Source: an uncultured Gammaproteobacteria bacterium (lineage in GTDB: Bacteria > Pseudomonadota > Gammaproteobacteria > CAZDOC01). Taken from it: a DNA stretch of 64,000 nucleotides. Shown here piece after piece: positions 42,262 through 64,000 of the stretch (the first letter of the stretch is position 1; each line of letters opens with the position of its first letter). The notes below the pieces were generated by a model. That model searched no databases. It saw nothing but the letters and a program-made list of their open reading frames with translations, and was not told the origin of the DNA. The stretch covers positions 1,284 through 65,283 of the forward strand of contig CAZDOC010000007.1 of the NCBI GenBank assembly GCA_964506945.1, given 5' to 3'. The position numbers were made by a program, and so were the translations under genes.

Positions 42262-42463
42262 GATGCCCCGTTTTTGTTATGCACCCACAGTCAACTGATC
42301 CGACATCCAAGGTCAAGCAGAAGCGGCCTGCCCATACTAGGATATGGATAAGGATTCTACTACGCCATCCTGACCCGGGACCAGATCCGGACGGAGTCCG
42401 GCAGCCTTGCGAGCGCCTGCTGGAACAGGTGACGACGAACAGTTTGCGACACGGAACATGACC

Positions 42464-43129: not shown

Positions 43130-43138
43130 GGGATGATG

Positions 43139-43319: not shown

Positions 43320-43373
43320 TGAACCCCGTCGGGATCGGCTATCCCCGGATCACATTTCCCCGGGCATCGGTTG

Positions 43374-44144: not shown

Positions 44145-44315
44145 AGGCTGTGTCTCGTGCGCACCATGTTGCGGGAGCTGGATCGACCAACAGGTCTCGT
44201 GCAAGACCCCCGACAGGAGGATCCTTTTCGGTCCATTGTCAGGGGCATCCCGGGGCCGAGATCCCGGCCCCGGCCATTCTAGCGGAGAACCCTGATTGAT
44301 GACACACTGTCCAGC

Positions 44316-45296: not shown

Positions 45297-45297
45297 G

Positions 45298-45992: not shown

Positions 45993-48900
45993 TCAGGCCG
46001 TCTGGCGATGCTCGACGCTGACGGTTTCACCTCGCTGCGCATGGATGTGCTCATACAGGCTCATCGGGGAATTGTGTGAGCAGTCGATGATGACCCCCTG
46101 CCCATGCAGGGCATCCTGAAGGGCGGCGCTTATGGTGTGCAGCGGCGCGCCGCCGCCTTCTCCCATGCCCTTGGCGCCGTTATAGCTGAACGGTGAGGGG
46201 GTCTCGATATTGGCATACTTCAGGATTGGCATGTTGTTGATCGTGATCGGCGCATAATCGGTGAACGATCCCGACAGGACATTGCCCTCATCGTCGTAGG
46301 GCATGGTCTCTATCAGGGCCGCGCCCAGTCCATGGGCAGTGGCTCCATGGACCTGGCCCTCGACGATCATGTGATTGATGACCTTGCCGCAATCATCGAC
46401 GGCGGCATAATCCAGGATCCGGGTCTGGCCGGTTTTCACATCGACCTCGACCACCGCCATATGCAGTTGCAGGGCATAGGTGAGGGTGAGATTGCCATAT
46501 TTCCTGTCCAGATCGGGGATCTGGAACGGTGGCACGTACACATGCCGGGCATTGAGGCTGATATCCCGCAGTTCCTCCGGCAAGGTCGCGTTGTTGTAGT
46601 TCACCATGTTCGACAGGGCCCAGTAGTTGACGGACTTGTCGGTACCGCTCACCCTGACTTCAGGGCCTTCATTGCCCATGCCGAATTCCAGATCGTCCTC
46701 ATTGGCCTCGAGGGCATGCGCCGCCAGTTTTCTCATTTCCGATTTGAGTTTGGTGACGGCGCCATGAATCGAGGACAGCCCGGTTACCGCGAACTGGCTG
46801 GCATAGGTGCCACAGGTGCCGGTATGCGAGTTGCGTTCGGTATCAAAACCGGTTTTTACGATGACCTGACTGGTGCCGATGCCCAGTTCATCCGCCACCA
46901 CCTGGGCAGCGGTCGTTTCGTGGCCTTGTCCCTGAGGAAAGGAGCCGACGCAAACGGAGACGGAACCGTCGAGGTCCAGTTTTACTATCGCTGTCTGGGA
47001 ATTGCCGGAGAACGGCAGAAAAGGATTGATGATCCTCGCCTGCGCAAAATTATTGGTGCCGGAATCCAGGGTGGTGCCTATGCCGATACCCAGCAGGCGG
47101 CCCTGCGCGCGCGCCTCGTCCTGTTTCCGCCGCCACGCGTCCCAGCCGATGAGTTCCTTGGCCCTGGCCATCATCGCGGGGAAATCCCCGGAATCGTAGA
47201 TACAGCCATTCGGTGTGGTGTAGGGGAACTCTTCGATGTAGTTGCGCAGCCTGATCTCGTCCGCGGGGATCCCCAGTTCATGACCGCAGATATCGATAAC
47301 ACGCTCCATGAACCACATGTGCGGCAGGCGCGAATAACCGCGGTTGGGTGCGCACGGCCCCTTGTTGGTCATCACCTGGCTGAAATCGATGCGCACATTG
47401 CGCAGCTTGTAGGCCGCCGGCAGTACCTGGGACCAGATCACGCATCCCAGGGGTTCATACCGGGGGTAGGCGCCACAGTCATCGACATGGCGGGAACGCA
47501 GGCCGGTGATGACGCCGCGCTCGTCCAGGGCCACCTCGGTATCGAAATAGTCCCGTTCGCTGCCATGCCCCCCCGCCTGCATGTATTCACTGCGGGTCTC
47601 CACCCATTTGACGGGTCTGCCGCCCAGTTTGCGCGAGGCCAGCGCCGCCAGTGTCATATAGGGGTAGTTGCAGATCTTGTTGCCGAAACTGCCGCCGATG
47701 TCATGGGTGCGCAGGCGGATCTGATCGATACGGACATTGAGAGCGCTCGCGATCATGGTCAGAGGGACCGTCATGGCGGTATTCGAGAAGAAATCGAGTT
47801 TGTCGCGGGGATCCCAGGTGGCCACGACCGCGTTGGTTTCCAGTGGCGTGCTGCTGAAGCGATGAAACTTCAGATGATCGATCCGGATCACATGCGCGGC
47901 GTCCCTGAAGGCCGCATCGACATCGCCGTATTCATAAACCCCTTGCCAGGTCCTGTTCGTTCCTGCGGACTCATGCAATACCACCTTGTCCTCCAGTGCC
48001 TCGCTACAGGTGACGACGGCGGGCAGCTTTTCATATTCCACGCCGATCAACTGCGCCGCATCCGTGGCTATCTCCACGGATTCCGCGATCACTGCGGCAA
48101 CGGGATCCCCCTGGTAAACCACCTTGTCGACCGCCAGCGCATAGTCCTTGATACTGGCGCTGGGCTCCTGGCCGATTTGCATGAAGGGAACCATGAGTTC
48201 GGTGATCTCCCTGCCGGTGAGCGTGCCCAGGACACCGGGCAGGGATTCGGCCTGGGAGACATCGATTTCCAGTATGCGGGCATGTGCATAGGGTGAGCGT
48301 ACCAGGACCATGTGCAACATGCCGCCGGCTTGCAGATCATCCACATACAATCCCTGGCCCCGGATGAGGCGCATGTCTTCCTTGCGGGCCAGGGCGCCGG
48401 ATTGTCGCGGCATGGCAAGTATCCGTTCCATCCGGGATTTGGCATCCTGCTGCAGGACCCGCGCATCCTCCGGCTGTTCCGCCAGGCCCGTGTCCCGGGC
48501 CTTCGCTACGCCGGTGGTGGAGACGGTCGTGGCCTGTTGACCCCCACGACCCAGCAGAAAGGCGATCAGACGGGAATACCAGGGGCTCTTCGCGGGTGCC
48601 TGTACAGCCCTGCTCGCCATCGCCTCCGGAGTCAGTGATTGTTGCAGGCTGTTGATCAGTACGTTGATCTCTTTTTCCGCATAGCCTCGCAGACCCCCGC
48701 CGGCCAGGGACAGGATCTTGCCTGCCAGAACGGTCTCGGCGCTCCATTTGATCCGGGTTGCATCGCCCAGGGGTTCGAGCCGGAACGCAGAGACCATCTG
48801 GTAGGCCCCCTGCATGACCTTGCCCTTGCCGATATAGCGGATACTCTCCGGAGGCAGGGCTTCATCGAGGATCAATCGAGTCGATGCCAGCGCGCGGATC

Positions 48901-49067
48901 TTGCCGATGCCCACCTTTACCCGCAGATTTGCCGTTTTTTCATCGAGCATCTCCAGGCTGTGATAGGTCGGCAGCAGGGGGGCGAATTTTTCCGGATCCG
49001 AGAGCAGCTCGAATACCTTCTCCCTGGGGAGTTCGATCCTGAATTCGCCGTCAAATTTCATCTCCAT
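45993..49067 (-). CDS. Xanthine-oxidase-family Mo-cofactor large subunit with N-terminal CoxG (SRPBCC) domain
   Basis: First ~145 aa are CoxG-like. Then RKEDMRLIRGQGLYVDD, RSPYAHARI, GGSFGNK, PNRGYSR, GQGHET, VHGATAHG, AKGMGEGG, all in one ORF. Confidence 0.88.
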   Translation of the reverse strand: MEMKFDGEFRIELPREKVFELLSDPEKFAPLLPTYHSLEMLDEKTANLRVKVGIGKIRALASTRLILDEALPPESIRYIGKGKVMQGAYQMVSAFRLEPLGDATRIKWSAETVLAGKILSLAGGGLRGYAEKEINVLINSLQQSLTPEAMASRAVQAPAKSPWYSRLIAFLLGRGGQQATTVSTTGVAKARDTGLAEQPEDARVLQQDAKSRMERILAMPRQSGALARKEDMRLIRGQGLYVDDLQAGGMLHMVLVRSPYAHARILEIDVSQAESLPGVLGTLTGREITELMVPFMQIGQEPSASIKDYALAVDKVVYQGDPVAAVIAESVEIATDAAQLIGVEYEKLPAVVTCSEALEDKVVLHESAGTNRTWQGVYEYGDVDAAFRDAAHVIRIDHLKFHRFSSTPLETNAVVATWDPRDKLDFFSNTAMTVPLTMIASALNVRIDQIRLRTHDIGGSFGNKICNYPYMTLAALASRKLGGRPVKWVETRSEYMQAGGHGSERDYFDTEVALDERGVITGLRSRHVDDCGAYPRYEPLGCVIWSQVLPAAYKLRNVRIDFSQVMTNKGPCAPNRGYSRLPHMWFMERVIDICGHELGIPADEIRLRNYIEEFPYTTPNGCIYDSGDFPAMMARAKELIGWDAWRRKQDEARAQGRLLGIGIGTTLDSGTNNFAQARIINPFLPFSGNSQTAIVKLDLDGSVSVCVGSFPQGQGHETTAAQVVADELGIGTSQVIVKTGFDTERNSHTGTCGTYASQFAVTGLSSIHGAVTKLKSEMRKLAAHALEANEDDLEFGMGNEGPEVRVSGTDKSVNYWALSNMVNYNNATLPEELRDISLNARHVYVPPFQIPDLDRKYGNLTLTYALQLHMAVVEVDVKTGQTRILDYAAVDDCGKVINHMIVEGQVHGATAHGLGAALIETMPYDDEGNVLSGSFTDYAPITINNMPILKYANIETPSPFSYNGAKGMGEGGGAPLHTISAALQDALHGQGVIIDCSHNSPMSLYEHIHAQRGETVSVEHRQTA

Positions 49068-49070
49068 CGT

Positions 49071-49559
49071 TCAGTCCTCACGCATGACCCTGGCGGCTTG
49101 TTGAATGGATTTGATGATATTCTGGTAGCCGGTACAACGGCAGACATTACCCGCCAGACGCCGGCGGATGTCCTTGAGATCGGGATCGGGCTGCTCGGCC
49201 AGAAGCGCCAGGGATGACATCAGCATGCCCGGGGTGCAATAGCCGCATTGCAGGCCATGGTTTTCCGAAAAGGCCTGCTGCAGCGGATGCAACACACCGT
49301 CTTTTTCCAGACCCTCGACGGTCAGGATCTCACCGCCATCGGCCTGCACGGCGAGCAGGGTGCAGGATTTCACCGCGTCCCCGTCCAGGATCACGGTACA
49401 GGCCCCGCAATAGCTGGTATCACAGCCGATATGGGTGCCCGTCAGGCCCAGCACCTTGCGAATGAACTCGACCAGCAGCAGGCGGGGTTCTATCCGTTGC
49501 CGGTGGGTCTTGCCGTTGACGATAATGGTGACGGGGACGATCTGCTTGTGCTCAGACAT
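49071..49559 (-). CDS. 2Fe-2S small subunit (CoxS/CutS-like)
   Basis: [33 protein letters not shown]. Start at 49559. Confidence 0.93.
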
Positions 49560-50448
49560 ATTCTGTTTTCCCGTTGACTTGTTTCCCACGCGCGCGTTCG
49601 ATGGCGGTATGTGCCGCCTTGATGAACAGGGAATGCAGCATGCTGCGCTTGAATGACGCCGACCCCCGCGAGTCCGATGGCGGATCCGAGCGGGAGATGA
49701 TTGCCTCGGCGGCCAGTTCGATATTCTTGCTGGACAGTTCCTGGCCGCGCAGGACGGCTTCGGCTTCTTCGCAGATCACCGGTCGGGGACCGGCGGAGCC
49801 GAGCACCAGGCGCACGTCCTTGCAGACATCGTCATCTGCCAGGGTCAGCTGTACGCCCGCCGTGGCGGCGGGGTAGGCCGGGGCGGCCTTCTTGAATCCC
49901 AGGTAGGCGCCGCCGCTGCGGCCTTGCGGGATGCGAAAGCGGATCTCCCTGACCAGTTCGGAATCCTTCAGTGCCGTGGTATAGGAGTCCTTGATGAAAT
50001 CCCTGATGGACAGGACCCGCTCGCCCGAGGCACCCTGGCAGACGACCTCGGCATCCAGGGTATGCAACAATGACGGCCAGTCACAACTGGGATCGGCGCT
50101 GCTGACGGAGCCGCCAATCGTGCCACGACTGCGCACCTGTGGGTCGGCGATGCCATTGGCGCAGTCTCTGACGATGGGGAACATCGCCGCGATATCCGAG
50201 CGGGCGATACGGGCGTGCGTGGACAGGGCGCCGATACAGATCCGGCCGTCTTCCTTGACCATGTGACGCAGGTTCGGCAGTCGTCCGATGTCGATCAGTG
50301 CCGTGGGTTCATCCATACGCAGTTTCAGTATCGGGATCAGGGATTGTCCACCGGCAAGCGGTTTCGCGCCTTCCCCGAGTTCCGACAGCAGGCGGATCGC
50401 CTCATCCAGGGTGGCGGGGCGGTAATAATCAAAGGCTGCGGGATACAT
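49552..50448 (-). CDS. FAD-binding medium subunit (CoxM/CutM-like)
   Basis: [35 protein letters not shown] region. Confidence 0.93.
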
Positions 50449-51041: not shown

Positions 51042-51917
51042 GTGGCACTGAGCAGTGTGCAGACCTATTACAGCCCCGACAGTGAAGCGGAGGTCGTCCG
51101 CTTGCTGGACAAGCACGAAGACAGCGCCCTGATCGTCGCCGGCGGCACCTTCCTGCACGGCCTCAGCTCCCGTGGCCTGCTGATGGGTATCGAGGCCCTG
51201 ATCGATATCCAGAACCTGCGTCTGGATTCCATACAGACCGATGACGGTAGCCTCGGCCTGGGCGCGACCACGCGCTTCGAACAACTCAAGACCCGCCTCA
51301 GCCCCATGCATGCCCCCTGGCTGGGCGCGGTCCTCGATGCCCTCGAGTATCCCCCGGTGCAGGTCCTGAACGCGGCCACCATCGGTGGCTGCATTGCCTC
51401 GTCCTGCCCCTTTTTCGACCTGCCGGTCAGTTTCCTGGCCCTGAACGGCACGGTGCAGATCATGGGTCCGGCAGGGGTCCGGGAGACCCCGCTGGAGGGC
51501 CTCTACACGGGTCTGTTCGAAACCGCGCTGGAAGGCAATGAATTCATCCGCGGGATACGGCTCCAGGCACCCGCCACATCCGCGGCCAGTGCTTTTCTCA
51601 AGCTCGAGAGCAATGCCAACGACCTGGCCATACTCAATCTTGCCATCAGCGTGTCCCTGGATGGATCGGGCCGATGCAGCGGGGTGCGGGTCTTTGCCGG
51701 TGGTGGTGTCGGCGAGGTCCCGGTCAGGCTGTCGGGCGCCGAGCAGGTGCTGGTCGGCGCCCGGCTCGATGACGAGACCCTGACGGCGGCGAGCCAGGCC
51801 GCACTACAGGATGTCGATCCGATCTCCGACCATCGTGCCTCGGCGGAGTACCGCAAGGCCATGACCGGGGTGCTGACCCGGCGCGTACTGCAAGCGATCC
51901 GTGAACGTCTCGCATAG
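51042..51917 (+). CDS. FAD-binding subunit, xanthine dehydrogenase family
   Basis: IVAGGTFL, VLNAATIGGCIA, SDHRASAEYR. GTG start. Confidence 0.9.
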   Translation: MALSSVQTYYSPDSEAEVVRLLDKHEDSALIVAGGTFLHGLSSRGLLMGIEALIDIQNLRLDSIQTDDGSLGLGATTRFEQLKTRLSPMHAPWLGAVLDALEYPPVQVLNAATIGGCIASSCPFFDLPVSFLALNGTVQIMGPAGVRETPLEGLYTGLFETALEGNEFIRGIRLQAPATSAASAFLKLESNANDLAILNLAISVSLDGSGRCSGVRVFAGGGVGEVPVRLSGAEQVLVGARLDDETLTAASQAALQDVDPISDHRASAEYRKAMTGVLTRRVLQAIRERLA

Positions 51918-51926
51918 AGGGGAACC

Positions 51927-52406
51927 ATGATGAAGCAGGTGATAGCGCTCGAAATCAATGGTGAGGTGCAGGAACTGCCGGTGGCGCCCTATGACAGCCT
52001 GCTGCATTGCCTGCGTGATGGTGCGAACCTGCTGGCCGCGAAGCGTGGCTGTGATTCCGGAGGCTGTGGTTGCTGCACGGTACTCATCGATGGCAAGGCG
52101 GTCTATTCCTGCATGACCCTGGCCATGTCGGTACAGGGCAGGAAGATCACCACGGTCGAAGGCTTGTCCCGGGGTGGAGCGCTGGAACCCATTCAACAGG
52201 CCTTCATCGATACCGGCGCGGTCCAGTGTGGCTATTGCACCTGTGGCATGATGATGGCCTCGAAAAATCTGCTGGACGACAACCCTCATCCCAGTGAGGC
52301 AGAGATACGCAAGGGTATCTCCGGGAACCTGTGCCGTTGTACCGGCTACAGCAAGATCGTCGATGCCGTGCGCATGGCCGCTGGCGAGCCTGGCCCGGAA
52401 GCATGA
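51927..52406 (+). CDS. 2Fe-2S subunit, xanthine dehydrogenase family
   Basis: KRGCDSGGCGCCTV, QCGYCTCG, GNLCRCTGY. Confidence 0.93.
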   Translation: MMKQVIALEINGEVQELPVAPYDSLLHCLRDGANLLAAKRGCDSGGCGCCTVLIDGKAVYSCMTLAMSVQGRKITTVEGLSRGGALEPIQQAFIDTGAVQCGYCTCGMMMASKNLLDDNPHPSEAEIRKGISGNLCRCTGYSKIVDAVRMAAGEPGPEA

Positions 52407-52482
52407 AGGCGATCGTTCCAGCAGCCACCGCCAGGATGTCACGTCTCCCCCGAACAGAGCGCCCATCTACGAGAATGCCACC

Positions 52483-54813
52483 ATGTCAGAGCTGAATGTC
52501 ATCGGTAAGAGCATCCGCAGGCCGGATGCCCACGACAAGGTCACGGGAGGCCGGCATTTCCCGGTGAATGTCAGTCTGCCGGGCATGCTGCATGCCCGCT
52601 TGCTGCGCAGCCCGTTTCCCCATGCACGCATCGTCAGCATCGATACCTCGGAGGCCGAGGCCCTGCCTGGCGTCAGGGCCGTGCTGGTTCCCGACGAGGT
52701 TCCGCAGATCCGCCTGACCCCGGTCTACTTCACCCCGGTACAGTCGCCGACCATGGTCCAGGATTTCATGGTGATGACCCGCGATGTGCGCTGGGTCGGC
52801 CAACCCGTGGCCGCGGTGGCGGCGTCATCCGCGGAGATTGCCGAGGCGGCAATCGAACTGATCGATGTGGAGTACGAGGAACTCCCCGCGGTTTTCGATC
52901 CCGAGGAAGCGATGGGCGAGGGTGCGCCGCAGTTGCACCCGGGTGCCGAACACAACATCGCCAAGCATGAGGTCTTCAGCATGGGCGACCTGGAGCAGGG
53001 CTTCGCCGAGGCGGATCACATCTTCGAAGGGGTCTATCAGACCCAGCGGGTGCATACCTGTTACATGGAACCCCGCGTCTGCGTCGTGGACAGCGATACC
53101 CAGGGTCGTCTGACCGTTCATTCCTCCATGCAACATGCCTTCGGCCTCAGGGAAAAGCTGGCCTTTGCCCTGGGTATCCCGGAAAGCCGGGTCAATGTCA
53201 TCAGGCCCGCCTATATCGGGGGCGGCTTTGGCGGCAAGCTGGACATGGGCTTCATCGAGCCGATCGCGGCCCTGCTGAGCCTCAAGACCGGCCGGCCCGT
53301 GCGCGCCGAGCAGACCCGCGCCGAGGACTTCATCAGTACCGCGCGTCACCCCATCAAGGTCTATCTGAAGACCGGCGTGAAGAACGATGGCAGCTTTACC
53401 GCGCGTTATATCAAGAGCGTGCTCGATACCGGCGCCCATGCCACGCATGGGTCGGAGGTCATCATGGTGCACGGCCTGTATGGGACCTTGTTCCCGTGGA
53501 CCTGTCCCAACCAGACCTGGGAAGGGTTTGCCGTCTATACCAACAACATGATCGGTGGCGGTTTCAGGGGCTACGGGGCGCCGCAGGGATGCTTCGCCGT
53601 CGAGTCGCAGAATGACGAGATCTGTGAGTCCCTGGGCCTGGACCCGATCGCCTTCCGCCTGAAGAACACCCGCAGGGAAGGGGACCCCCATCCCGTCCTG
53701 CAGGGGCACAAGCTGAACAGCTATCGCCTGGACGAGTGTCTCAGGACGGGGGCGCAGCATATAGGTTTCGAGCGGCGCCAGGCCGCCGGTTCGTCTGCCG
53801 GGGCCATCAAGCGGGGCATGGGCTTCGCCTGTCATCCGCTGTGGGTCAGCGGCTGCGTGGGGTTCCCGGATATCTACGAGCATTCCGGCGCGGTGATCAA
53901 GCTGAACCGGGATGCCACCGCGGACATCATCAGCGCCTGCGTGGATATCGGCTCCGGGCAGACCACCATGCTGACCCAGGTCGTGGCCGAGGAACTGGGT
54001 CTGCCGGCCGAATCCGTGCGCCTGGTCTATGCCGATACCGATACCGCTCCCTTCGATGCCCCCACGCATGCCAGCCGGGCAACCTATGCCGCCGGCGCGG
54101 CTACCCGGGCCGCCGCCATCGAGGCGAGAAAGCGCCTGTTCGAGGTCGCCGGCCATGTGATGGAGGCCAATCCGGAAGACCTGCTCATCCAGGATGGCAA
54201 GGTCATGGTCAAGGGGGCCCCGGATTCGGCCATGCCGATGCAGGACATCATCGCCAGGGCCGAATCCCCCTTCATACAGGTAGGCGAACAGGGCCCGTTT
54301 CCAACCACGCTGGAGGAGAAGGGGACCATCATGGGCATGGCCAGCATGGCGCCACCGAGCAACCCCACCCCGGTCGCGGCGGAGTTCGTCGAGCTGGAAG
54401 TCGATACGGAGACCGGGGAGGTCAGGATCCTGCGCGTGGTCTATGCTCATGACATAGGCAAGCTGATCCATCGTTGCTCGGCCGAGGGACAGGTCGAGGG
54501 CGGCTTCCAGCAGGGCATGGGCTATGCCCTGATGGAGAACATGGTCTTCGACCAGGAGACGGGCGCCTGCCTGACGGGCGACTTCCTGGATTACAAGATG
54601 CCGACGGCCATGGAGATGCCCGCATCGATAGAGAGCATCTTCATAGAATCCAATGAACCCAGCGGCCCCTACGGCGCCAAGAGTCTCTCGGAGATGTGCA
54701 TCATTCTCCCGGCCGCGGCCATCGCCAATGCCGTCTATAACGCCATCGGGGTCAGGATCACGGAACTGCCGATCACACCGGAGAAGATCCTCAGGGCCCT
54801 GGGCAGGATCTGA
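52483..54813 (+). CDS. Mo-cofactor-binding large subunit, xanthine dehydrogenase family
   Basis: DAHDKVTG, RSPFPHARI, GGGFGGK, FRGYGAPQG, GQVEGG..QGMG, AKSLSE. Start at 52483 (track gives 52294). Confidence 0.92.
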   Translation: MSELNVIGKSIRRPDAHDKVTGGRHFPVNVSLPGMLHARLLRSPFPHARIVSIDTSEAEALPGVRAVLVPDEVPQIRLTPVYFTPVQSPTMVQDFMVMTRDVRWVGQPVAAVAASSAEIAEAAIELIDVEYEELPAVFDPEEAMGEGAPQLHPGAEHNIAKHEVFSMGDLEQGFAEADHIFEGVYQTQRVHTCYMEPRVCVVDSDTQGRLTVHSSMQHAFGLREKLAFALGIPESRVNVIRPAYIGGGFGGKLDMGFIEPIAALLSLKTGRPVRAEQTRAEDFISTARHPIKVYLKTGVKNDGSFTARYIKSVLDTGAHATHGSEVIMVHGLYGTLFPWTCPNQTWEGFAVYTNNMIGGGFRGYGAPQGCFAVESQNDEICESLGLDPIAFRLKNTRREGDPHPVLQGHKLNSYRLDECLRTGAQHIGFERRQAAGSSAGAIKRGMGFACHPLWVSGCVGFPDIYEHSGAVIKLNRDATADIISACVDIGSGQTTMLTQVVAEELGLPAESVRLVYADTDTAPFDAPTHASRATYAAGAATRAAAIEARKRLFEVAGHVMEANPEDLLIQDGKVMVKGAPDSAMPMQDIIARAESPFIQVGEQGPFPTTLEEKGTIMGMASMAPPSNPTPVAAEFVELEVDTETGEVRILRVVYAHDIGKLIHRCSAEGQVEGGFQQGMGYALMENMVFDQETGACLTGDFLDYKMPTAMEMPASIESIFIESNEPSGPYGAKSLSEMCIILPAAAIANAVYNAIGVRITELPITPEKILRALGRI

Positions 54814-54919
54814 AGGGTCGCGGCACAGGGGCCCTGGCCGGCGCGGCGCAATATCGAGGGATATCCCGACTGGCCCGGGGCGAGACTTGCAGGCCTGAAC
54901 CTGACCTGGAAACAGGGGA

Positions 54920-57691
54920 GTGAGTCGTATGCACGCACAAAGCAAGCCCCAGGGCACGGAAAGCAAGCCCCGGGGCAAGAAGATCTCCACCTATTGCTAT
55001 CAATGTGTCAACGGGCCGGACATCCTCACGGTCGAGGTCATCGACGGCGTGGCCACCCGGATCGAACCGAATTTCGACCTCAAGGGCGAGCACCCGGCCG
55101 ATGGCAAGGTCTGTGTCAAACCCTTTGGACTGATCCAGAAACTCTACAATCCCAACCGGCTCAAGAAGCCGATGAAGCGCACCAACCCGAAAAAGGGCAA
55201 GGATGAAGACCCGGGCTGGGTCGAGATCGGCTGGGACGAGGCCCTGGATATCGTGGCCGGGAAACTGGCCCGGATCCGGGAGCAGGGACTGACCGATGAA
55301 AACGGCAATCCCCGCCTGGCCTTTACCACCGGGGGGGCCGCGACCCCCTATAAATACATGGGCAGTTTCCCGGCCTTCCTGGTCGCCTGGGGGCCGATAG
55401 ACCAGAGCATCGGCGCGGGTGGCACCGTCAAGTGCTACCACAGCGAGCATATGTTCGGCGAACTCTGGCACCGCGCCTTTACCGTGTTGCCGGATACCCC
55501 CAGCTGTGAATACATCATCTCCTTCGGCAACAATATCAATGCCTCCGGTGGCGTGACCGGTGTGCGCCGGCATGCCGATGCCAGGGCGCATGGCATGAAA
55601 CGCATCCAGTTCGAGCCCCATCTGTCGGTGACCGGGGCCACGGCCTCGGAATGGGTGCCCATCAAGCCACAGACCGATTCCGCCGTGCTCTTCGCCATGC
55701 TGCACGTGCTGCTGCACGAAACCCCCATCGATGAGCTGGACGTGCCCTTCCTGCGGGACCATACCGCCTCACCCTACCTGGTCGGCCCCCACGGTTTCTA
55801 TCTGCGTGATCCCGGGTCCGGCAAGCCACTGGTGTGGGACAACAATACCACCGAGGCGGTGCCCTTCGATCGGGCCGGCATCGATCCCGCCCTGCTGGGG
55901 CCTTTCACGGTCGGCCGGGCGCTGGAGAAGGGCGCCGATGATGCGTCCTGGACACACGAGGGCGTGGTGGCCTTTACCGGACTGGACATGGCGCGCAAAC
56001 TCGTGGCCGACAAGACCCCGGAATGGGCCGAGGGGATCTCCGATGTCCCCGCCGCGACCACCCGGCGAGTGGCACGGGAATTCCTGCAGCACGCCCATAT
56101 CGGTGAGACCATCGAGATAGACGGCAGGGTCCTGCCCTATCGCCCGGTCGCGAGTGTACTGGGAAAATCCGTCAACAATGGCTGGGGCGGCTATGAATGT
56201 GTCTGGGCGCATACCATGATGCAGGTGCTGGTTGGCGCCCTGGAGGTGCCGGGCGGTCTGCTGGGCAGCACCGTGCACCTGTCCGGCGATACGGACTGGG
56301 ATCGCATGCTGACCGTGGAGCCGGGGGAGGACGGTTTCATGAAGGCCCCGTTCAATCCCACCAGCAAGGACGAATGGAACGCCCATCCGACCAACCGCCA
56401 TGCGGAAAGCAGTCTCACGCCCATGGCCGGTCACAACCAGGGGGCGCAGTTGTTCGGCGCCACGACCATGGCCTGGCTGCGTCTGCAGGGACGCGCCGCC
56501 AAGAGCTGGCCCAGGCCCAATCCGCCGGATGTGTGGTTCGTCTACAAGTGCAATCCGGCCATTTCATTTTCCGAGACCGACAGGATCTGCGAGGAGATGG
56601 CGCAGTTTCCGTTCATCGCGGCCTTCACCTATCAGCTGGACGAGACGGTACACTTCGCCGATGTGCTGATGCCGGAGGCGACCGATCTGGAAAGCGATCA
56701 ATTACTGCGTATCGGCGGGACGCACTATTTCGAGAATCACTGGGTGACTGAGGGCTGGGCCTTGCGCCAGGCGGTGGTCGAGCCCCAGGGTGAGGCGCGT
56801 GATTTCAGCTGGATCGCCAACCAGCTGGCGCGCAGGCTGGGTATGCTGGAAGAATACAACACCATGATCAACTTCGGTGTGTGCGGCATTCCACTGCAGG
56901 GAGAGGGTTATGATTTCAGCATCGACCCGACCACGGAACATCCCCAGGAAGAGATCTGGGATGCCGTGTGCAAGGCGGCCAGTTACGATATCACCGGCGG
57001 CCAGGAGACGCTCGGGATCGACTGGTTCAGGGAACACGGTTACAAGACCCGGCCCTTCTCGCGCCTGCACTGGTATCTGTTCCCGCTGATGCAGGACATG
57101 GGCCTGCGCTTCGAACTGCCCTACCAGGAACGCTATTTCCGCATGGGCCGGGAACTGGCCAACCGCCTGCACGAGACCGGCGCCGACTGGTGGGACCGGC
57201 AGCTGGCGGAATACGAGCCCCTGCCGGAATGGCGCGATCTGAACAAGCTCTGGGACGAGATCATCGCCAAGAACAACCATGTCGATCCCGCCGATTACCC
57301 CTTCTGGCTGCTGACCGGGCGCAGCATGCAGTATGCCTGGGGCGCCAATGTCAGCATACAGATGATGAATGAGGTCTCGAACAACGTATTCGGCCACGAC
57401 GGCATCATAATGAACGCCGGCAGGGCCGCGGAAATGGGTATCGAGGATGGCGATACCATCGAGGTGGAATCTCCCGTCGCCAGCACCCGCGGCATCGCGC
57501 GCCTGCGCCAGGGGGTGCGCCCGGATGTCATCATCATGCTGGCCCAGTTCGGGCAATGGAATACGCCCGTGGCCAAGGAACTGAAACGCCCCAACCTGAA
57601 CAGACTGGTGCCGATGAACCAGGATTCGGTCGATGCCGGCGGCGCGAGTATCGACGGCACCAAAGTCAAGATCAAACGCGTGGAGGCCTGA
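54920..57691 (+). CDS. DMSO-reductase-family Mo-bisPGD enzyme, phenylacetyl-CoA:acceptor oxidoreductase large subunit-like (PadB-like)
   Basis: TYCYQCVNGPD..IEPNF..HPADGKVCVKPFGLIQKLYNP resembles the PadB N-terminus as I recall it; no Tat signal; C-terminal LLTGRSMQY. Confidence 0.75.
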   Translation: MSRMHAQSKPQGTESKPRGKKISTYCYQCVNGPDILTVEVIDGVATRIEPNFDLKGEHPADGKVCVKPFGLIQKLYNPNRLKKPMKRTNPKKGKDEDPGWVEIGWDEALDIVAGKLARIREQGLTDENGNPRLAFTTGGAATPYKYMGSFPAFLVAWGPIDQSIGAGGTVKCYHSEHMFGELWHRAFTVLPDTPSCEYIISFGNNINASGGVTGVRRHADARAHGMKRIQFEPHLSVTGATASEWVPIKPQTDSAVLFAMLHVLLHETPIDELDVPFLRDHTASPYLVGPHGFYLRDPGSGKPLVWDNNTTEAVPFDRAGIDPALLGPFTVGRALEKGADDASWTHEGVVAFTGLDMARKLVADKTPEWAEGISDVPAATTRRVAREFLQHAHIGETIEIDGRVLPYRPVASVLGKSVNNGWGGYECVWAHTMMQVLVGALEVPGGLLGSTVHLSGDTDWDRMLTVEPGEDGFMKAPFNPTSKDEWNAHPTNRHAESSLTPMAGHNQGAQLFGATTMAWLRLQGRAAKSWPRPNPPDVWFVYKCNPAISFSETDRICEEMAQFPFIAAFTYQLDETVHFADVLMPEATDLESDQLLRIGGTHYFENHWVTEGWALRQAVVEPQGEARDFSWIANQLARRLGMLEEYNTMINFGVCGIPLQGEGYDFSIDPTTEHPQEEIWDAVCKAASYDITGGQETLGIDWFREHGYKTRPFSRLHWYLFPLMQDMGLRFELPYQERYFRMGRELANRLHETGADWWDRQLAEYEPLPEWRDLNKLWDEIIAKNNHVDPADYPFWLLTGRSMQYAWGANVSIQMMNEVSNNVFGHDGIIMNAGRAAEMGIEDGDTIEVESPVASTRGIARLRQGVRPDVIIMLAQFGQWNTPVAKELKRPNLNRLVPMNQDSVDAGGASIDGTKVKIKRVEA

Positions 57692-57694
57692 GCC

Positions 57695-58351
57695 ATGACT
57701 CGTTATGTAATGGTCGCGGACATGAACCGTTGCGTTGGCTGCCAGACCTGCACCGCGGCCTGCAAACATACCAACGCCACCCTGCCGCAGGTGGAATGGC
57801 GCAAGGTGCTCGATATCGAGTGGGGTGAGTACCCCGATGCCCACCGCGTCTTCATGCCCGTCGGTTGCCAGCACTGCGCCGATCCCCCCTGCATGAGCGT
57901 CTGTCCCAGCACCGCCACCGGGCAGCGCGAGGACGGCCTGGTCACCATCGATTACGATCTCTGCATCGGCTGTGGATACTGCATGGTGGCCTGCCCCTAC
58001 CAGGCCCGCTACAAGGTCTCGGAGCCGCACTTCGCCTATGGCGATACGCCGATGGCATCGGAGGCCGCGCGCTTCGATGAAAAGCGTATCGGTGTCGCCC
58101 AGAAATGCACCTTCTGCGCGGATCGCGTGGATGACGGCCTGGCCAGGGGCCTGACGCCGGGGCTCGATCCCGATGCCACGCCCGGATGCGTCAACGCCTG
58201 TATCGCCGATGCCCTCACCTTTGGCGATATCGAGGATGAAAACAGCAATGTCTCCCGCCTGCTGGAGGAGAACACCTGGTTCCAGATGCACGCCGAGCTG
58301 GAGACGGAGACCGGCTTTTATTACCTGTGGGACCAAGAGCCAGGGGAGTGA
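57695..58351 (+). CDS. 4Fe-4S dicluster subunit (PadC/DmsB-like)
   Basis: CVGCQTCTAAC, CQHCADPPCMSVCP, CIGCGYCMVACPY, KCTFC, PGCVNAC. Confidence 0.9.
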   Translation: MTRYVMVADMNRCVGCQTCTAACKHTNATLPQVEWRKVLDIEWGEYPDAHRVFMPVGCQHCADPPCMSVCPSTATGQREDGLVTIDYDLCIGCGYCMVACPYQARYKVSEPHFAYGDTPMASEAARFDEKRIGVAQKCTFCADRVDDGLARGLTPGLDPDATPGCVNACIADALTFGDIEDENSNVSRLLEENTWFQMHAELETETGFYYLWDQEPGE

Positions 58352-58358
58352 ACCCAAA

Positions 58359-59237
58359 GTGACGAGATATGGCAGTATTCTGCAAACCTACTGGGACTGG
58401 CGCGCCGCCGGCAACTTCATCTTTGGCGGCACCGGCAGCGGCCTGCTGATCGGTGCGGTCATGCTGGCCTATCCCGGCCCCCTGGACCCGGTGCTGGGCC
58501 TGCTGGCACTGGCCTTCATGGGCCTGGGGCTGTTCCTGGTCTGGCTGGAGATCGGCAAACCGCTGCGTTTCCTGCATGTGTACTTCCATCCGCAGACCTC
58601 GTGGATGACCCGCGAAGGGAGTGTCGCCGGCCTGCTGTTCCCGGTGGCCCTGCTGGCCATGTATCTGGGATCCGCCTGGCTGGTCGCGATCACGGGCCTG
58701 CTTGCGGCCATGTTCCTCTATTGTCAGGCCAGGATACTGCAGGCCTCGAAAGGGGTCCCTGCCTGGCGCGATCCCGCCATGGTGCCGCTGATCCTCGGCA
58801 CGGGTCTGGTCGAGGGTACGGCAATCGCCCTGGCCGCCCTGTGTCTGGGCGCCGGGCCGTCGCCGTCGCTGGTGACGGCCTTCGCCGTATTACTCCTGCT
58901 GCGGGCCTATCTGTGGAAGCGATACGGCAACAGTCTGCATCGGCATGATGCCCCCCGGGAGACACTGGCCGTCATCGATGGCATGGACGGCCTCACGCTG
59001 TGGGGCGGGAATATCGTCCCCCTGCTGCTGCTTATCGTCGCCTCGCTGGTCCCCGCCCTGGCCCCGTTGTCGCTCCTCCTCGCGGCGGCAGGCGCACTCT
59101 TCAGTGGCTGGCACATGAAATACGCCCTCGTCAGGCGGGCCTCCCAGCTACAGGGCTACGCCTTCGGCAGGCTGCGCAAGGGGCGGCCCAGGATCAAGCC
59201 CCCGGTACGCAGGCAGCCGGATCGTTTTGTGTTGTAG
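58359..59237 (+). CDS. Membrane anchor subunit (PadD/DmsC/NrfD-like)
   Basis: QTYWDWRAAGNFIFGGTGSG, EIGKPLR, SWMTRE; multiple TM segments. GTG start at 58359. Confidence 0.85.
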   Translation: MTRYGSILQTYWDWRAAGNFIFGGTGSGLLIGAVMLAYPGPLDPVLGLLALAFMGLGLFLVWLEIGKPLRFLHVYFHPQTSWMTREGSVAGLLFPVALLAMYLGSAWLVAITGLLAAMFLYCQARILQASKGVPAWRDPAMVPLILGTGLVEGTAIALAALCLGAGPSPSLVTAFAVLLLLRAYLWKRYGNSLHRHDAPRETLAVIDGMDGLTLWGGNIVPLLLLIVASLVPALAPLSLLLAAAGALFSGWHMKYALVRRASQLQGYAFGRLRKGRPRIKPPVRRQPDRFVL

Positions 59238-59941: not shown

Positions 59942-61606
59942 TCACATATCGGGATAGTTCGGCCCGCCGCCCCCTTCCGGCGTCACCCAGGTGATGTTCC
60001 GGCACGGGTCCTTGATGTCGCAGGCCTTGCAGTGCAGGCAGTTCTGGGCGTTGATCTGCAGGCGTGGCCCACCCGTTTCGTCCGTGACGATTTCATAGAC
60101 CCCGGCGGGGCAGTAGCGTTGTTCCGGGGCATCGTAGCGTTCCAGGCTGGCGCCGATGGCCAGTCGTGGATCCTTGAGTCGCAGATGGCAGGGCTGGTCT
60201 TCCTCGTGATTGGTGTTGGAGAGAAAGACCGATGACAGGCGATCGAAGCTGATCTGCGCATCGGGTTTCGGGTAGGCGATCCGCCGGCACTGTTGCCGGG
60301 GACGCAGTCTGTCACGGTCGCTGACACGGTCATGGATCGTCAGCGGCAGGGCCCCGGAGAAGAGATTCTGATCGAGCAGGTTATAGGCCCCGCCGGCGTA
60401 GAGGCCGAAGCGGTGTATGACGGAGCCGAAATTCCGGCTGCGATGGAGTTCGTCATACAGCCAGGACTGCCGGTAGCGTAGCTCATGCCCCCCGGGGTCT
60501 TCATCCTCCCTGGCGGTGTGGTCCAGCGCGGCATGGATGCTCTCGGCCGCCAGGGCGCCGGACTTCATGGCCGTATGGATGCCCTTGATCTTGGAGAAAT
60601 TCAGGGTTCCGGCCTCACAGCCGGCCAGCAGGGCCCCGGGCATGACCATCCTGGGCTGGGACAGCAGCCCGCCCTTGCTGAGGGTCCTGGCGCCATAGGC
60701 GATGCGGCGTCCACCGGCCAGGGTCTCGCGTATCAGGGGATGCTGCTTGTAGCGCTGGAATTCCTCGAACGGGCTGAGGTAGGGGTTGGCATAATTGAGA
60801 TCGGTGATCAGGCCCACGCTGACCCGGTTGTCGGCCAGGTGATAGAGGAAGGATCCGCCCGTGGCTGCCGATTCACTGAGTGGCCAGCCGGCGCCGTGGA
60901 GGACCCGCCCGGGTTCATGCCGGGCCGGATCGATCTCCCACAGTTCCTTGATGCCGAGGGCATAATGTTGCGGGTCGCGGCCTTCATCGAGCCGGAAATG
61001 CGCGATCAGCCGCCGGCCCAGGTGACCGCGGCAGCCCTCCGCGAAGAGGGTGTATCTCGCCCGCAACGCCATGCCGGGCTGATAGCCGGGTTTGTGGCTG
61101 CCGTCCGCGGCCACGCCCATATCCCCGGTGATCACCCCGCTGACCCGGTTGCCCTCATCGATGATCACCTCCGCGGCGGGGAAGCCGGGGAAGATGTCCA
61201 CCCCCAGTTCCTCCGCCTGCCGGGCCAGCCAGCGGCACAGCAGGCCCAGGCTGATGATATGGTTGCCCTGGTTGCGCATGGGTCTGGGGACCAGGAATTC
61301 CGGGATACGGGTGGCATGCCGCGGGTCCCTGAAAAAATAGACCTCGTCACGGCCGACCGGGACCTCGACCGGGGCCCCTCGCTGTTTCCAGTCCGGGAGC
61401 AACTCATCCAGCGCGCGGGTCTCGAAGATTGCGCCCGAGAGGATATGCGCCCCGATCTCAGAGCCCTTCTCCAGGATACAGACCGATATATCCTGCTCAC
61501 TGTCCGCGGCCAGCTGGCGCAGGCGGATCGCCGCCGACAGTCCGCAGGGGCCCCCGCCTACGATGACCACGTCGTATTCCATGCTTTCCCGTTGCATCGG
61601 CGCCAT
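59942..61606 (-). CDS. Electron transfer flavoprotein-ubiquinone oxidoreductase
   Basis: YDVVIVGGGPCGLSAA, EKGSEIGAHILSGA, YCPAGVYE, NCLHCKACDIKDP, PEGGGGPNY. Confidence 0.96.
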   Translation of the reverse strand: MAPMQRESMEYDVVIVGGGPCGLSAAIRLRQLAADSEQDISVCILEKGSEIGAHILSGAIFETRALDELLPDWKQRGAPVEVPVGRDEVYFFRDPRHATRIPEFLVPRPMRNQGNHIISLGLLCRWLARQAEELGVDIFPGFPAAEVIIDEGNRVSGVITGDMGVAADGSHKPGYQPGMALRARYTLFAEGCRGHLGRRLIAHFRLDEGRDPQHYALGIKELWEIDPARHEPGRVLHGAGWPLSESAATGGSFLYHLADNRVSVGLITDLNYANPYLSPFEEFQRYKQHPLIRETLAGGRRIAYGARTLSKGGLLSQPRMVMPGALLAGCEAGTLNFSKIKGIHTAMKSGALAAESIHAALDHTAREDEDPGGHELRYRQSWLYDELHRSRNFGSVIHRFGLYAGGAYNLLDQNLFSGALPLTIHDRVSDRDRLRPRQQCRRIAYPKPDAQISFDRLSSVFLSNTNHEEDQPCHLRLKDPRLAIGASLERYDAPEQRYCPAGVYEIVTDETGGPRLQINAQNCLHCKACDIKDPCRNITWVTPEGGGGPNYPDM

Positions 61607-61614: not shown

Positions 61615-62568
61615 TCAGCGGTCGCCCGGTCCAGCGTCCAGCTCGCGCAACAGCTGGGGGACGATCTCGAACAGATCGCCGACGATACCGTAGTTCGCGA
61701 CCTGGAATATCGGCGCATCGGCATCCTTGTTGATGGCCACCACCACCTGGCTGTCCTTCATCCCGGCAAGGTGCTGGATGGCCCCTGAGATGCCGACGGC
61801 GATGTACAGTTTGGGCGCGACGACCTTGCCGGTCTGGCCAACCTGGGCATCATTGCCGATAAAACCGGCGTCCACCGCCGCCCTGGATGCGCCAATCGCG
61901 GCGCCCAGCCTGTCCGCCAGCTGCTCGACCAGGGCGAAGTTCTCCTTGCTGCCCAGACCACGGCCGCCGGAGACGACGATCTCCGCGCTGGCCAGATCGG
62001 GGCGATCCGAGATCGTCGGGTCGTTGCGCACCAGTTCGGACAGGCCGCTGTCAACGGCCCCGCCGATCTCGACGATGCCGGCGGCTTCGCCTTGCCGGCC
62101 CCCGGCGGCCGGGAAGGCGGTGGCGCGGACCGTGAGCACCTTGATCGGATCGTCCGACTGCACCGTGGCGATGATATTTCCGGCATAGATCGGCCGCTGG
62201 AAGGTATCCGGCGACTGGACGGCGATGATCTCGGATATCTGCGCGACATCGAGCAGGGCCGCCACGCGCGGCAACAGGTTCTTGCCGGTGGTCGTTGCCG
62301 GGCCCAGGATGTGGGTGTACGCGGATGCCTGCTGGCGGACCAGGGGCGCGATATTCTCTGCCAGTTGCGCCGCGCAGGCGGGATCGTCGCATAACAGGAC
62401 CTGCCCGACCCCGGCGATCGTGGTCAGGCCCAGGGCGATGTCCCGGCACTGGTGTCCCGCCACCAGGACATCGACGCTCGCGGAGATGCCAAGGCCCGCG
62501 GTGATCGCCGACAGCGTGGCGCTGTTCAGGGTCTGGTTGTCGTGGTCGGCTATTATCAGGCATTGCAT
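61615..62568 (-). CDS. etfA: Electron transfer flavoprotein alpha subunit
   Basis: VVSGGRG, GASRAAVDAG, QVGQTGKVVAP, GISGAIQHLAGM. Confidence 0.96.
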   Translation of the reverse strand: MQCLIIADHDNQTLNSATLSAITAGLGISASVDVLVAGHQCRDIALGLTTIAGVGQVLLCDDPACAAQLAENIAPLVRQQASAYTHILGPATTTGKNLLPRVAALLDVAQISEIIAVQSPDTFQRPIYAGNIIATVQSDDPIKVLTVRATAFPAAGGRQGEAAGIVEIGGAVDSGLSELVRNDPTISDRPDLASAEIVVSGGRGLGSKENFALVEQLADRLGAAIGASRAAVDAGFIGNDAQVGQTGKVVAPKLYIAVGISGAIQHLAGMKDSQVVVAINKDADAPIFQVANYGIVGDLFEIVPQLLRELDAGPGDR

Positions 62569-62569
62569 G

Positions 62570-63319
62570 TCAGATCACCCCGGCTTCATGACGCAGTTTA
62601 TCCAGCAGCTCGGCCGCGTCCGCGACCAGGATCCCGGCCTCGCGCGTGGCCGGATCGGCAACCCGCAGCAGTTTCAGGCGGGGCTTGAGCGCGACCCCGA
62701 GGTCTCCGGGCGTGAGTGTCTCCATGGGTTTCTTCCTGGCCTTCATGATATCCGGGAGCTTGGCGTAGCGCGGCTCGTTCAGGCGCAGGTCGGTGGTGAC
62801 CACGGCAGGCAGTTTCAGGCGCAGTGTCTGTGTGCCGCTGTCCGTTTCCCGGGTCACCAGCGCGCTGTCGTCCTCCAGTTTCAGCTCGCAGGCGAAGCTG
62901 CCCTGGCCCCAGCCGAGCAGGGCGGCGAGCATCTGGCCGGTCTGGTTGGCGTCATCGTCTATGGCCTGTTTGCCCAGCAGTATCAGCCCCGGTCCTTGCC
63001 GGTCGGCGATGGCCTTGAGCAGCCTGGCCACATCCAGGGGCTGGAGATCCCCGTCGGTATCGACATGCATGCCGCGGTCCGCACCCATGGCCAGCCCGGC
63101 GCGGATGGTCTCCTGGCAGGCGGGTCCTCCCAGGGACACCAGCACCACCTCGCTGGCCAGGCCCTGCTCCTTGAGCCTCAGGGCCTCTTCCACGGCGATC
63201 TCGTCGAAGGGATTCATAGACATCTTGAGATTGCTGGTATCGACGCCGCTGCCATCGGCCTTCGGATGCACGCGGACGTTGTAGTCCACCACGCGTTTGA
63301 CCGCCACCAGTATGATCAT
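62570..63319 (-). CDS. etfB: Electron transfer flavoprotein beta subunit
   Basis: VAVKRVVD, MNPFDEIAVEEA, GKQAIDDD, NEPRY. Start at 63319. Confidence 0.96.
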   Translation of the reverse strand: MIILVAVKRVVDYNVRVHPKADGSGVDTSNLKMSMNPFDEIAVEEALRLKEQGLASEVVLVSLGGPACQETIRAGLAMGADRGMHVDTDGDLQPLDVARLLKAIADRQGPGLILLGKQAIDDDANQTGQMLAALLGWGQGSFACELKLEDDSALVTRETDSGTQTLRLKLPAVVTTDLRLNEPRYAKLPDIMKARKKPMETLTPGDLGVALKPRLKLLRVADPATREAGILVADAAELLDKLRHEAGVI

Positions 63320-64000
63320 TCCTCTTCCCCCCATGATTGAATGACGCCGAGTTGCCGCAAACCATCGATCCGTTCCCGCTCCAGGCCCAGCAGTTCATCC
63401 AGGACCGCGTCGGTATGTTCCCCCAGGAGTGGCGGCGCCTGCTCACTGTGATGCGCCGCGCGCGCGAACCTGATCGGGCTGGCCACAGTATCGAACTCGC
63501 CGGCCAGGCGGTGGGACATTCTTCTGAGCATGCCCCGGTGGCGGATCTGCCGATCGTCGAAGACCTTGTCGATGGTGTTGATCGGCCCGCAGGGGATCCG
63601 CCGGGAACGCAATTCCCGCAGCCATTCCCGCGCGCTCCGGGTCTTGAAGGCCTGCTCCAGGATCGGCAGCAGGGCCGCCTTGTTGCGTACCCGTTCACGG
63701 TTGCTGGCATAGCGTGGGTCCCCGGCAAGTTGCGGTTGCCCGAGCAGTTCGCACAGGCGGGAGAACTGTGCGTCATTGCCGACCGCCAGGACGATATGCG
63801 CATCGGCGGTGGCGAAGCTCTGGTAGGGAACGATATTCGGGTGGCCGTTGCCCTGGCGGCGGGGAACCGCGCCCGTGGTCAGGTAGTTCATGGCCTGGTT
63901 GGCGAGCACGGCGGCCTGCACGTCCAGCAGCGAGAGGTCGATATAATCGCCCTTGCCAGAGTTCCGGCGTTCGATCAGCGCCGCCAGGATGGCGACGGTC
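63316..64000 (-). CDS. CaiB/BaiF (family III) CoA-transferase, 3' part (5' end beyond window)
   Basis: Frame is open to the edge: TVAILAALIERRNSGKGDYIDLSLLDVQAAVLANQAMNY..GNGHPNIVPYQ..VGNDAQF..PPLLGEHT. Confidence 0.92.
   Translation of the reverse strand, partial: TVAILAALIERRNSGKGDYIDLSLLDVQAAVLANQAMNYLTTGAVPRRQGNGHPNIVPYQSFATADAHIVLAVGNDAQFSRLCELLGQPQLAGDPRYASNRERVRNKAALLPILEQAFKTRSAREWLRELRSRRIPCGPINTIDKVFDDRQIRHRGMLRRMSHRLAGEFDTVASPIRFARAAHHSEQAPPLLGEHTDAVLDELLGLERERIDGLRQLGVIQSWGEEE

Follow-up and report, generated by a model that had tools for sequence, protein, structure and literature searches.

A PadBCD-like molybdoenzyme complex outside the phenylacetate-linked PadB clade, encoded beside molybdenum hydroxylases and F420-dependent enzymes in an uncultured gammaproteobacterium

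Six plus-strand genes of an uncultured gammaproteobacterium, within a 64,000-nucleotide stretch (the window; C7:1284-65283, where C7 is the contig) of a 2.66 Mb, 97%-complete genome, encode a xanthine dehydrogenase (XDH)-type molybdenum hydroxylase trimer, here called X1, followed by a complex resembling PadBCD (EC 1.17.5.1), the phenylacetyl-CoA:quinone oxidoreductase. Because the complex falls in a sister clade to the phenylacetate-linked enzymes, carries an altered loop beside its molybdenum ligand, and is found in a genome where pad and paa genes are absent, its sequence indicates that it is a PadB-family variant and not the phenylacetyl-CoA enzyme. On balance, we lean toward a catalytically competent, cytoplasm-facing, quinone-reducing complex of this sister clade (clade II) that would act on a non-phenylacetyl substrate within a pathway shared with other molybdoenzymes.

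A PadB-family complex with conserved catalytic features

The FAD, [2Fe-2S] and molybdenum (Mo) subunits followed by PadB-, PadC- and PadD-like genes on a single strand, as read in the first-pass annotation of this DNA, were confirmed by Pfam and NCBIfam (Table 1). No NCBIfam model is dedicated to the PadB family, and the best named matches of the PadB-like protein (PhsA, DmsA, and ArrA) are all far below cut-off. As a reference for comparison, we located a Thauera pad operon (L096) through the PadI model (839 bits). It encodes a 913-aa DMSO-reductase-family protein, PadC, PadD, PadE, PadG, PadH, PadI, and PaaK, with PadE, PadG, PadH, PadI, and PaaK each exceeding their NCBIfam equivalog cut-offs, and has the arrangement described for the pad cluster of Thauera and Aromatoleum (PMC4453571).

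The window proteins are 56% (full length), 68%, and 43% identical to the PadB, PadC, and PadD copies of this operon, and the B-C-D gene order and subunit sizes match (about 915, about 215, and about 290-300 aa). Like PadB, the PadB-like protein has no RR (twin-arginine, Tat) in its first 40 residues, and its FS0 motif, C26-x2-C29-x4-D34...C65, has the third Cys replaced in the same way; C26, C29, and C65 are invariant, and D34 changes to Cys or His only in distant representatives. Cys172, in a KCYHSEH motif, is also invariant and aligns with the Mo-site cysteine of ArrA and PsrA, and 235 of 923 alignment columns are identical across clade II and its sister. The identities, gene order, lack of a Tat signal, and FS0 motif bear out the label PadBCD-like, and because the missing Tat signal, FS0, Cys172, and the 235 columns are common to both clades, the complex reads as a genuine PadB-family enzyme whose catalytic machinery appears intact. 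To our knowledge, no other enzyme from the PadBCD branch of the DMSO-reductase family has been characterized.

Several other identities were considered and rejected. SoeABC, another member of the DMSO-reductase family that faces the cytoplasm, likewise has three subunits, one of them an NrfD-type anchor, but the presumed SoeA homologs in purple sulfur bacteria and at Sedimenticola loci are only 24-26% identical to the window protein; for SoeABC, Psr, Phs, Ttr, and Arr alike, the NCBIfam scores far below cut-off and the lack of a Tat signal count against the assignment. A pseudo-molybdoenzyme, or a scaffold without a cofactor, was rejected on the conservation of the Mo-ligand Cys and the cofactor domains. 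A related proposal is that the complex is a membrane quinone-reductase module that collects electrons from X1 and from a second hydroxylase trimer, X2, in the manner of Qrc or of the pseudo-molybdoenzymes of alternative complex III (ACIII), and the complex does repeatedly adjoin XDH trimers and CoxG, a membrane-recruiting protein. We consider this very improbable, given that the complex retains FS0, the Mo-ligand Cys, and the two pterin-binding domains as they are in PadB, that X1 and X2 possess FAD exit subunits of their own, that one relative (G004) has the complex without X1, and that other clade II members occur without any XDH and some without the membrane subunit.

Searches of the PDB turned up no PadBCD structure, and a plasmid collection held no informative relative (best identities 30% for PadB and 43% for X1). 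Among the reference genomes, Thauera (G001) has two PadBCD sets that are 64% identical (L009/L008 versus L096): L096 is the canonical padBCD-EGHI-paaK operon, and the set of L009/L008 adjoins a PaaX-type regulator, with XdhC, a MobA/MocA-like NTP-transferase, and FdhD ahead of its PadBCD genes. In Rubrivivax sp. SCN 71-131 (L011:9787-13428), one open reading frame of 1213 aa seems to cover the PadB-like and PadC-like parts, which may be a fusion or a frame artifact.

A sister clade without phenylacetate genes

In a tree of 57 sequences (IQ-TREE quick search, LG+G4), a clade of 28 rows with SH-aLRT support of 100 takes in the window protein and every homolog of at least 60% identity. This clade II has paaK, paaX, or padE-I within 10 kb in none of the eight rows with known context, and in its sister clade (17 rows, support 86), 12 rows have one of these genes nearby, including the full padBCD-EGHI-paaK operons of Rhodocyclaceae (L015, L022, L028, and L096). 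The approximately unbiased (AU) test rejects a position of the window protein inside the pad-linked clade, a clade that was named after the tree was seen (delta lnL 427, p 4e-40). Only five sites are conserved within each clade yet different between the two, and three of them directly precede the Mo-ligand Cys172 (S166A, Q168G, and G169T); the loop before the ligand is A-G-G-T in the window protein and S-G-Q-G in PadBCD. Judged from the alignment, these loop changes are what one would expect if the chemistry were retained and the substrate had changed.

The rest of the phenylacetate pathway, represented by phenylacetate-CoA ligase and phenylglyoxylate:acceptor oxidoreductase, was not found with the complex. 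With tblastn against the whole genome, no homolog of Thauera PadE, PadG, PadI, PaaK, PaaX, or FdhD was detected at E<=1e-5; the sole PadI match is its ferredoxin part to the PadC-like gene itself, the same gene that the PadI NCBIfam model picks out. The PadI model gave 839 bits in Thauera and 834 bits in Magnetospirillum as positive controls, and PadI was also not found in G003 and G004, two genomes with close relatives of the complex. The genes paaK/padJ, padEFGHI, paaX, and fdhD, which distinguish the setting of PadBCD, are neither near the complex nor elsewhere in the genome, and the window complex is linked instead to XDH-family trimers, CoxG, F420-dependent LLM oxidoreductases, and electron transfer flavoprotein (ETF) genes.

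These results bear on the first-pass annotation in different ways. Its remark that the window holds no 2-oxoacid:acceptor oxidoreductase or CoA ligase stands and extends to the whole genome (tblastn and the PadI model), as does its expectation that padE-J are missing. The PadB-like protein, which it had taken to belong with PadB, falls outside the PadB clade, the outcome it had itself named as contradicting its proposal, and its suggestion of an aryl- or heteroaryl-acetyl-CoA analog as substrate found no direct support.

The complex could still be an isofunctional phenylacetyl-CoA:quinone oxidoreductase whose phenylglyoxylate leaves by some other route, for example decarboxylation to benzaldehyde, which the XDH-family trimer would then oxidize in the role of an aldehyde oxidoreductase. 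The 56% identity to an operon-verified PadB with the same architecture, the label of phenylacetyl-CoA:acceptor oxidoreductase that the Joint Genome Institute (JGI) gives to relatives, and a thiamine pyrophosphate (TPP) enzyme directly upstream in one clade II locus would fit such a role. We consider it very improbable in view of the sister-clade position, the changed residues beside the Mo ligand, the lack of PaaK and PaaX in the genome, the absence of paa/pad neighbors at all eight clade II loci with known context, and an island of genes (described below) in which none of the benzoylformate-decarboxylase type was seen. A PadB-family variant with a different substrate remains our preferred description.

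Two molybdenum hydroxylases of uncharacterized function

X1 and X2 both belong to the xanthine oxidase family of Mo-hydroxylase heterotrimers (by Pfam, with FAD, 2x[2Fe-2S], and Mo subunits), and they are separate, complete enzymes. The best solved structure for the X1 Mo subunit is the alpha subunit of 4-hydroxybenzoyl-CoA reductase (4-HBCR, HcrABC; 1RM6_A, 379 bits versus 297 for quinoline oxidoreductase), with which X1 shares the three-subunit FAD/2Fe-2S/Mo layout. X1 differs from 4-HBCR in that its scores are far below the NCBIfam equivalog cut-offs (561/995 bits for alpha, 66/405, and 170/258), and its 291-aa FAD subunit is without the [4Fe-4S] insert of 4-HBCR beta, the 4hydrxCoA_B model covering residues 126-285 only. 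X1 also falls short of the equivalogs of E. coli-type XdhABC (Mo 626/916 and 623/780, FAD 125/310, FeS 182/217). Purine-specific hydroxylases have Glu after the GGGFGGK motif, and the X1 residue in this position is Leu. X1 is best described as an uncharacterized oxidative hydroxylase.

The Mo subunit of X2 (1024 aa) has CoxG fused at its N terminus and an active-site loop PNRGYSR, and its best matches are quinoline 2-oxidoreductase (372 bits) and form-II/CoxL-type CO-dehydrogenase-like proteins (354 bits). It resembles these enzymes in the CoxG, CoxD, and CoxE accessory genes found in loci related to the window, and differs in the CoxG fusion and in a loop that matches neither the CO-dehydrogenase nor the form II motif. 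The X2 ortholog of Thiotrichaceae bacterium UBA4486 (G003:C3:67831-70893) contains one in-frame TGA; the gene may be a pseudogene, the codon may be recoded, or the sequence may be in error.

Conserved linkage of the complex

The order-level genome set consists of the window's genome only, and a class-level sample of 400 genomes gave 10 matches, too few for phyletic statistics. Among the loci recovered, X1 adjoins the complex in the window, L002/L003, L004, L035/L105, L097, L101, L102, L111, and genome G014, and the PadB-like proteins of X1-bearing relatives are 67-81% identical to that of the window. X1 stands in at least four arrangements: upstream or downstream of the complex on its strand, downstream on the opposite strand, or divergent from it. 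In the window, gaps of 9, 76, 115, 3, and 7 bp separate the six genes, and the plus strand of 51042-59237 has no terminator-like hairpin between them, making co-transcription of the X1 trimer with the PadBCD-like genes plausible; the placement of X1 in relatives, often divergent or on the opposite strand, indicates that co-transcription is not a conserved trait.

X2 tracks the complex better than X1 does. All four genomes with a close PadB-like protein have an ortholog of X2 (73-74% identity), which is missing from each of five comparison genomes, and the same distribution holds for orthologs of LLM1, a Mer-like F420-dependent LLM oxidoreductase encoded in the window. Both lie within <=80 kb of the complex in three of the four close genomes and on other short contigs in G014. 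The fullest version of this linkage comes from L004/L173/L174, a 4.68 Mb contig of a distant genome, with 67% identity between its PadB-like protein and that of the window. Here, a same-strand run begins with BNR, MMPL, DUF1302, DUF1329, PadB, PadC, PadD, and CoxG (the BNR/MMPL homologs being directly 5' of PadBCD) and continues with X1, X2, CoxD, CoxE, LLM1, NpdG, ETF-beta, and ETF-alpha, with a second LLM oxidoreductase, LLM2, slightly further on. LLM1 of this run shares 83% identity with the window LLM1, and two other proteins of the locus match different genes just past the window end: LLM2 (76% identity) and the free CoxG (60%). ETF genes adjoin the complex in L002, L010, L035, L099, L100, and L174, and a family III CoA-transferase and an acyl-CoA dehydrogenase are near it in several loci, directly 5' of the PadB-like gene in L007.

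The PadBCD-like genes are one part of a larger conserved set on contig C7, at approximately 24-72 kb: an AmeCD-like transporter, XdhC-MocA, LLM1, NpdG, F420 biosynthesis genes, X2, X1, the clade II complex (PadBCD-II), ETF-QO/ETF, CoA-transferase, acyl-CoA dehydrogenase, LysR, CoxG, DUF3179, and LLM2. The gene order is variable, X1 is absent from G004 and from within 10 kb at some close loci, and the F420 operon stands alone elsewhere; these features would be expected if X1, X2, the F420 genes, and PadBCD-II were independent enzymes in one variable island and their adjacency meant nothing functionally. The recurrence of the same set as a tight same-strand run in the distant L004, together with X2 and LLM1 in four of four close genomes and none of five comparison genomes, argues for functional linkage, and we hold meaningless adjacency to be unlikely.

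A cyclase operon that is conserved separately

The first-pass annotation had also connected the complex to a PF04199-family cyclase in the window, described as isatin-hydrolase-like, and offered a route from indole or oxindole to 2-aminophenylglyoxylate as one possibility. In such a route, a Mo hydroxylase would convert indole to oxindole, the PadBCD-like complex would oxidize oxindole at its C3 methylene, or else 2-aminophenylacetyl-CoA, yielding isatin or isatinate, and the cyclase would serve as isatin hydrolase. Three points would fit: oxindole C3 is a benzylic methylene adjacent to a carbonyl, which makes the chemistry analogous to that of PadBCD; among solved structures, X2 comes closest to quinoline 2-oxidoreductase; and PF04199 cyclase genes lie near PadB-like genes in L007, L098, and L109. 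These last cyclases belong to other subfamilies closest to generic metal hydrolases, and no solved isatin hydrolase is among the PDB matches of the window cyclase, whose best match is an uncharacterized protein. The cyclase therefore shows no particular similarity to solved isatin hydrolases, and its assignment as one was dropped.

The window cyclase is, moreover, 19 kb from the PadBCD-like genes, in an operon of F420-associated genes; the region around it (28423-45933) includes two PanE paralogs, an M24 peptidase, AraC, cofC/D/E, and npdG. This F420 operon block is kept at 58-82% identity in Elongatibacter sediminis (L176) and Candidatus Thiodiazotropha (L177), where no PadBCD-like gene and no X1 or X2 ortholog was found within 10 kb of the block (L177 has an unrelated XDH-type trimer, 37% identical), and where the slot of the cyclase is occupied by another protein. 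The block looks like a fixed F420-associated module of Gammaproteobacteria and is possibly biosynthetic, not catabolic. Since the operon is conserved at loci without PadBCD-like genes, X1, or X2 nearby, and the L004 operon is without a cyclase, the indole route gains no support and we regard it as very doubtful.

Accessory genes and gene calls

LLM1 and LLM2 are Mer-like F420-dependent enzymes that score below the equivalog cut-off, and NpdG scores above its own. Past the window end, the contig continues after the family III CoA-transferase, a gene of succinate-glutarate type that the first-pass annotation overlooked, with acyl-CoA dehydrogenase, LysR, CoxG, DUF3179, and LLM2; a CoxG-DUF3179 pair also adjoins X1 in L097. 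A link to tetrahydromethanopterin (H4MPT) was rejected: Ftr (formylmethanofuran:H4MPT formyltransferase) and serine-cycle-type genes lie just downstream of the L004 operon with its Mer-like LLMs (L174:16268-20107), and contig C24 of the window genome carries homologs of both serine-cycle-type genes at about 60% identity, but Ftr has no homolog in that genome.

A guanine dinucleotide form of the cofactor is expected for the PadB-like enzyme. The XdhC-MocA fusion (transferase domain at C7:29114-29641) is the only molybdenum cofactor nucleotidyltransferase-like gene detected genome-wide, and a separate MobA was not detected in the genome. In Thauera, XdhC and an NTP-transferase precede the PadB paralog where no XDH enzyme is nearby. 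The BNR protein and HAE3-type RND transporter of the window resemble AmeC and AmeD, the model being the four-part AmeABCD transporter (PMC6394551); their DUF1302/DUF1329 partners are not adjacent, with weak homologs on contig C34, and in Aromatoleum toluclasticum (L047), a 52%-identical MMPL gene adjoins another DMSO-reductase-family enzyme and an XDH-like gene.

For the gene starts, ATG 52483 is the likely start of the X1 Mo subunit, whose open reading frame as listed begins at 52294. The PadB-like gene could start at ATG 54929 (920 aa), which has the Shine-Dalgarno sequence GGGGAG 8 nt upstream, or at GTG 54920 (923 aa). Computed hydropathy gives the PadD-like protein at least six hydrophobic helices. 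The ABM-domain protein gene that follows it is also 3' of PadD in L010.

Table 1. Features of the window discussed in the text (positions counted from its first nucleotide).
Feature	Position	Strand	Basis or remark
BNR/Ycf48-like protein and HAE3-type RND (MMPL) transporter, AmeCD-like	23145-26608	+	
XdhC-MocA fusion	26793-28415	+	
LLM1, Mer-like F420-dependent LLM oxidoreductase, 362 aa	29644-30732	+	
Cyclase, PF04199 family	35438-36262		In operon LLM1, FAH-family hydrolase, M20 deacylase, FbiC, cyclase, HMGL-like synthase
NpdG, NADPH-dependent F420 reductase	42407-43129	+	NCBIfam TIGR01915, 199.5 bits versus cut-off 149.8
X2 trimer overall	45993-50448	-	FAD, 2Fe-2S, and CoxG-fused Mo subunit
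X2 Mo subunit	45993-49067	-	
X2 2Fe-2S subunit	49071-49589	-	
X2 FAD subunit	49552-50448	-	
X1 FAD subunit, CoxM/XdhB-like, 291 aa	51042-51917	+	Pfam FAD_binding_5 and CO_deh_flav_C
X1 [2Fe-2S] subunit, 159 aa	51927-52406	+	Pfam Fer2 and Fer2_2
X1 molybdopterin subunit, 776 aa	52483-54813	+	Pfam Ald_Xan_dh_C, MoCoBD_1/2
PadB-like Mo-bisPGD catalytic subunit, clade II	54929-57691	+	Pfam Molybdopterin and Molydop_binding
PadC-like four-cluster [4Fe-4S] subunit, 218 aa	57695-58351	+	Pfam Fer4_11 and related models; Cys motifs checked
PadD-like NrfD-type membrane anchor, 292 aa, GTG 58359	58359-59237	+	Weak Pfam NrfD match
ABM-domain protein with C-terminal membrane helices, 194 aa	59307-59891	+	Pfam/hydropathy
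ETF-QO	59942-61606	-	
ETF alpha	61615-62568	-	
ETF beta	62570-63334	-	
Family III CoA-transferase, C-terminal part	63316-64000	-	Cut by window end

Proposed role and its implications

From the observed architecture, clade, conserved linkage, and absence of pad and paa genes, we infer a chemistry, a substrate class, and a shared pathway for the clade II complex. The complex would face the cytoplasm, with an alpha subunit carrying Mo-bis-pyranopterin and FS0, a beta subunit with four [4Fe-4S] clusters, and a gamma subunit acting as an NrfD-type quinone-reducing anchor. By analogy with PadBCD, the alpha subunit would take hydride or electrons from an activated C-H (methylene) at the Mo center, water-derived oxygen would be added to a cytoplasmic substrate, probably a CoA thioester, and electrons would pass from FS0 through the four beta clusters to membrane quinone at the anchor. 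A CoA thioester is our best guess, by analogy, because the nearest characterized relatives, PadB and 4-HBCR, act on aromatic CoA thioesters and because a family III CoA-transferase and an acyl-CoA dehydrogenase are near the complex in several loci. X1 and X2 most likely catalyze other steps of the same oxygen-independent pathway, which would also draw on the two Mer-like F420-dependent LLMs, NpdG, and ETF/ETF-QO; the island probably encodes an oxygen-independent oxidation pathway. A fuller scenario, tentative and on the unlikely side, is that the 23-72 kb island encodes an undescribed catabolic pathway of uncultured sediment Gammaproteobacteria in which PadBCD-II, X1, and X2 successively oxidize one (hetero)aromatic or otherwise activated substrate with oxygen from water, electrons flow to quinone and ETF, and the LLMs carry out an F420H2-dependent reductive step.

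Several observations weigh against this role. First, X1 is not obligatory: genome G004 keeps the complex with a best X1 match of only 40%, and X1 was not found within 10 kb in L010/L100, L099, L103, and L098. Second, much of the synteny (ETF and gcdH-like genes) is among fairly related lineages and may reflect ancestry, not function. Third, the clade assignment comes from a quick search under LG+G4 and an AU test of a clade chosen after the tree had been seen. Fourth, X1 scores marginally higher against E. coli-type XdhA than against 4-HBCR, which makes the CoA-ester argument for X1 weak. Finally, clade II is not known to have a characterized member, and its other contexts, which include a pyrroloquinoline quinone (PQQ) dehydrogenase, a TPP enzyme, and a hydantoinase, suggest that the clade is probably heterogeneous in substrate.

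The position of the complex matters for how such genes are named. JGI names relatives phenylacetyl-CoA:acceptor oxidoreductase, with more than 100 sequence clusters (at least 60% identity) so labeled, and this name, derived from KEGG Orthology (KO), is being applied to a large sister clade. Our search of the literature on PadBCD, phenylacetyl-CoA dehydrogenase, and 4-HBCR together with padB found no paper on clade II or its XDH linkage. Since the label falls on clade II, whose loci with known context have no phenylacetate genes nearby, anaerobic phenylalanine and phenylacetate degradation in metagenomes is likely overstated, and KO-based "PadB" calls should not be taken as phenylacetate degradation. 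The recurrent linkage of the complex to ETF, F420-dependent LLMs, and two Mo hydroxylases delimits a concrete, testable set of genes for a new pathway of oxygen-independent oxidation, and it offers a candidate physiological context for F420 in proteobacteria; if the fuller scenario above holds, molybdenum hydroxylases and proteobacterial F420 would be functionally linked for the first time.

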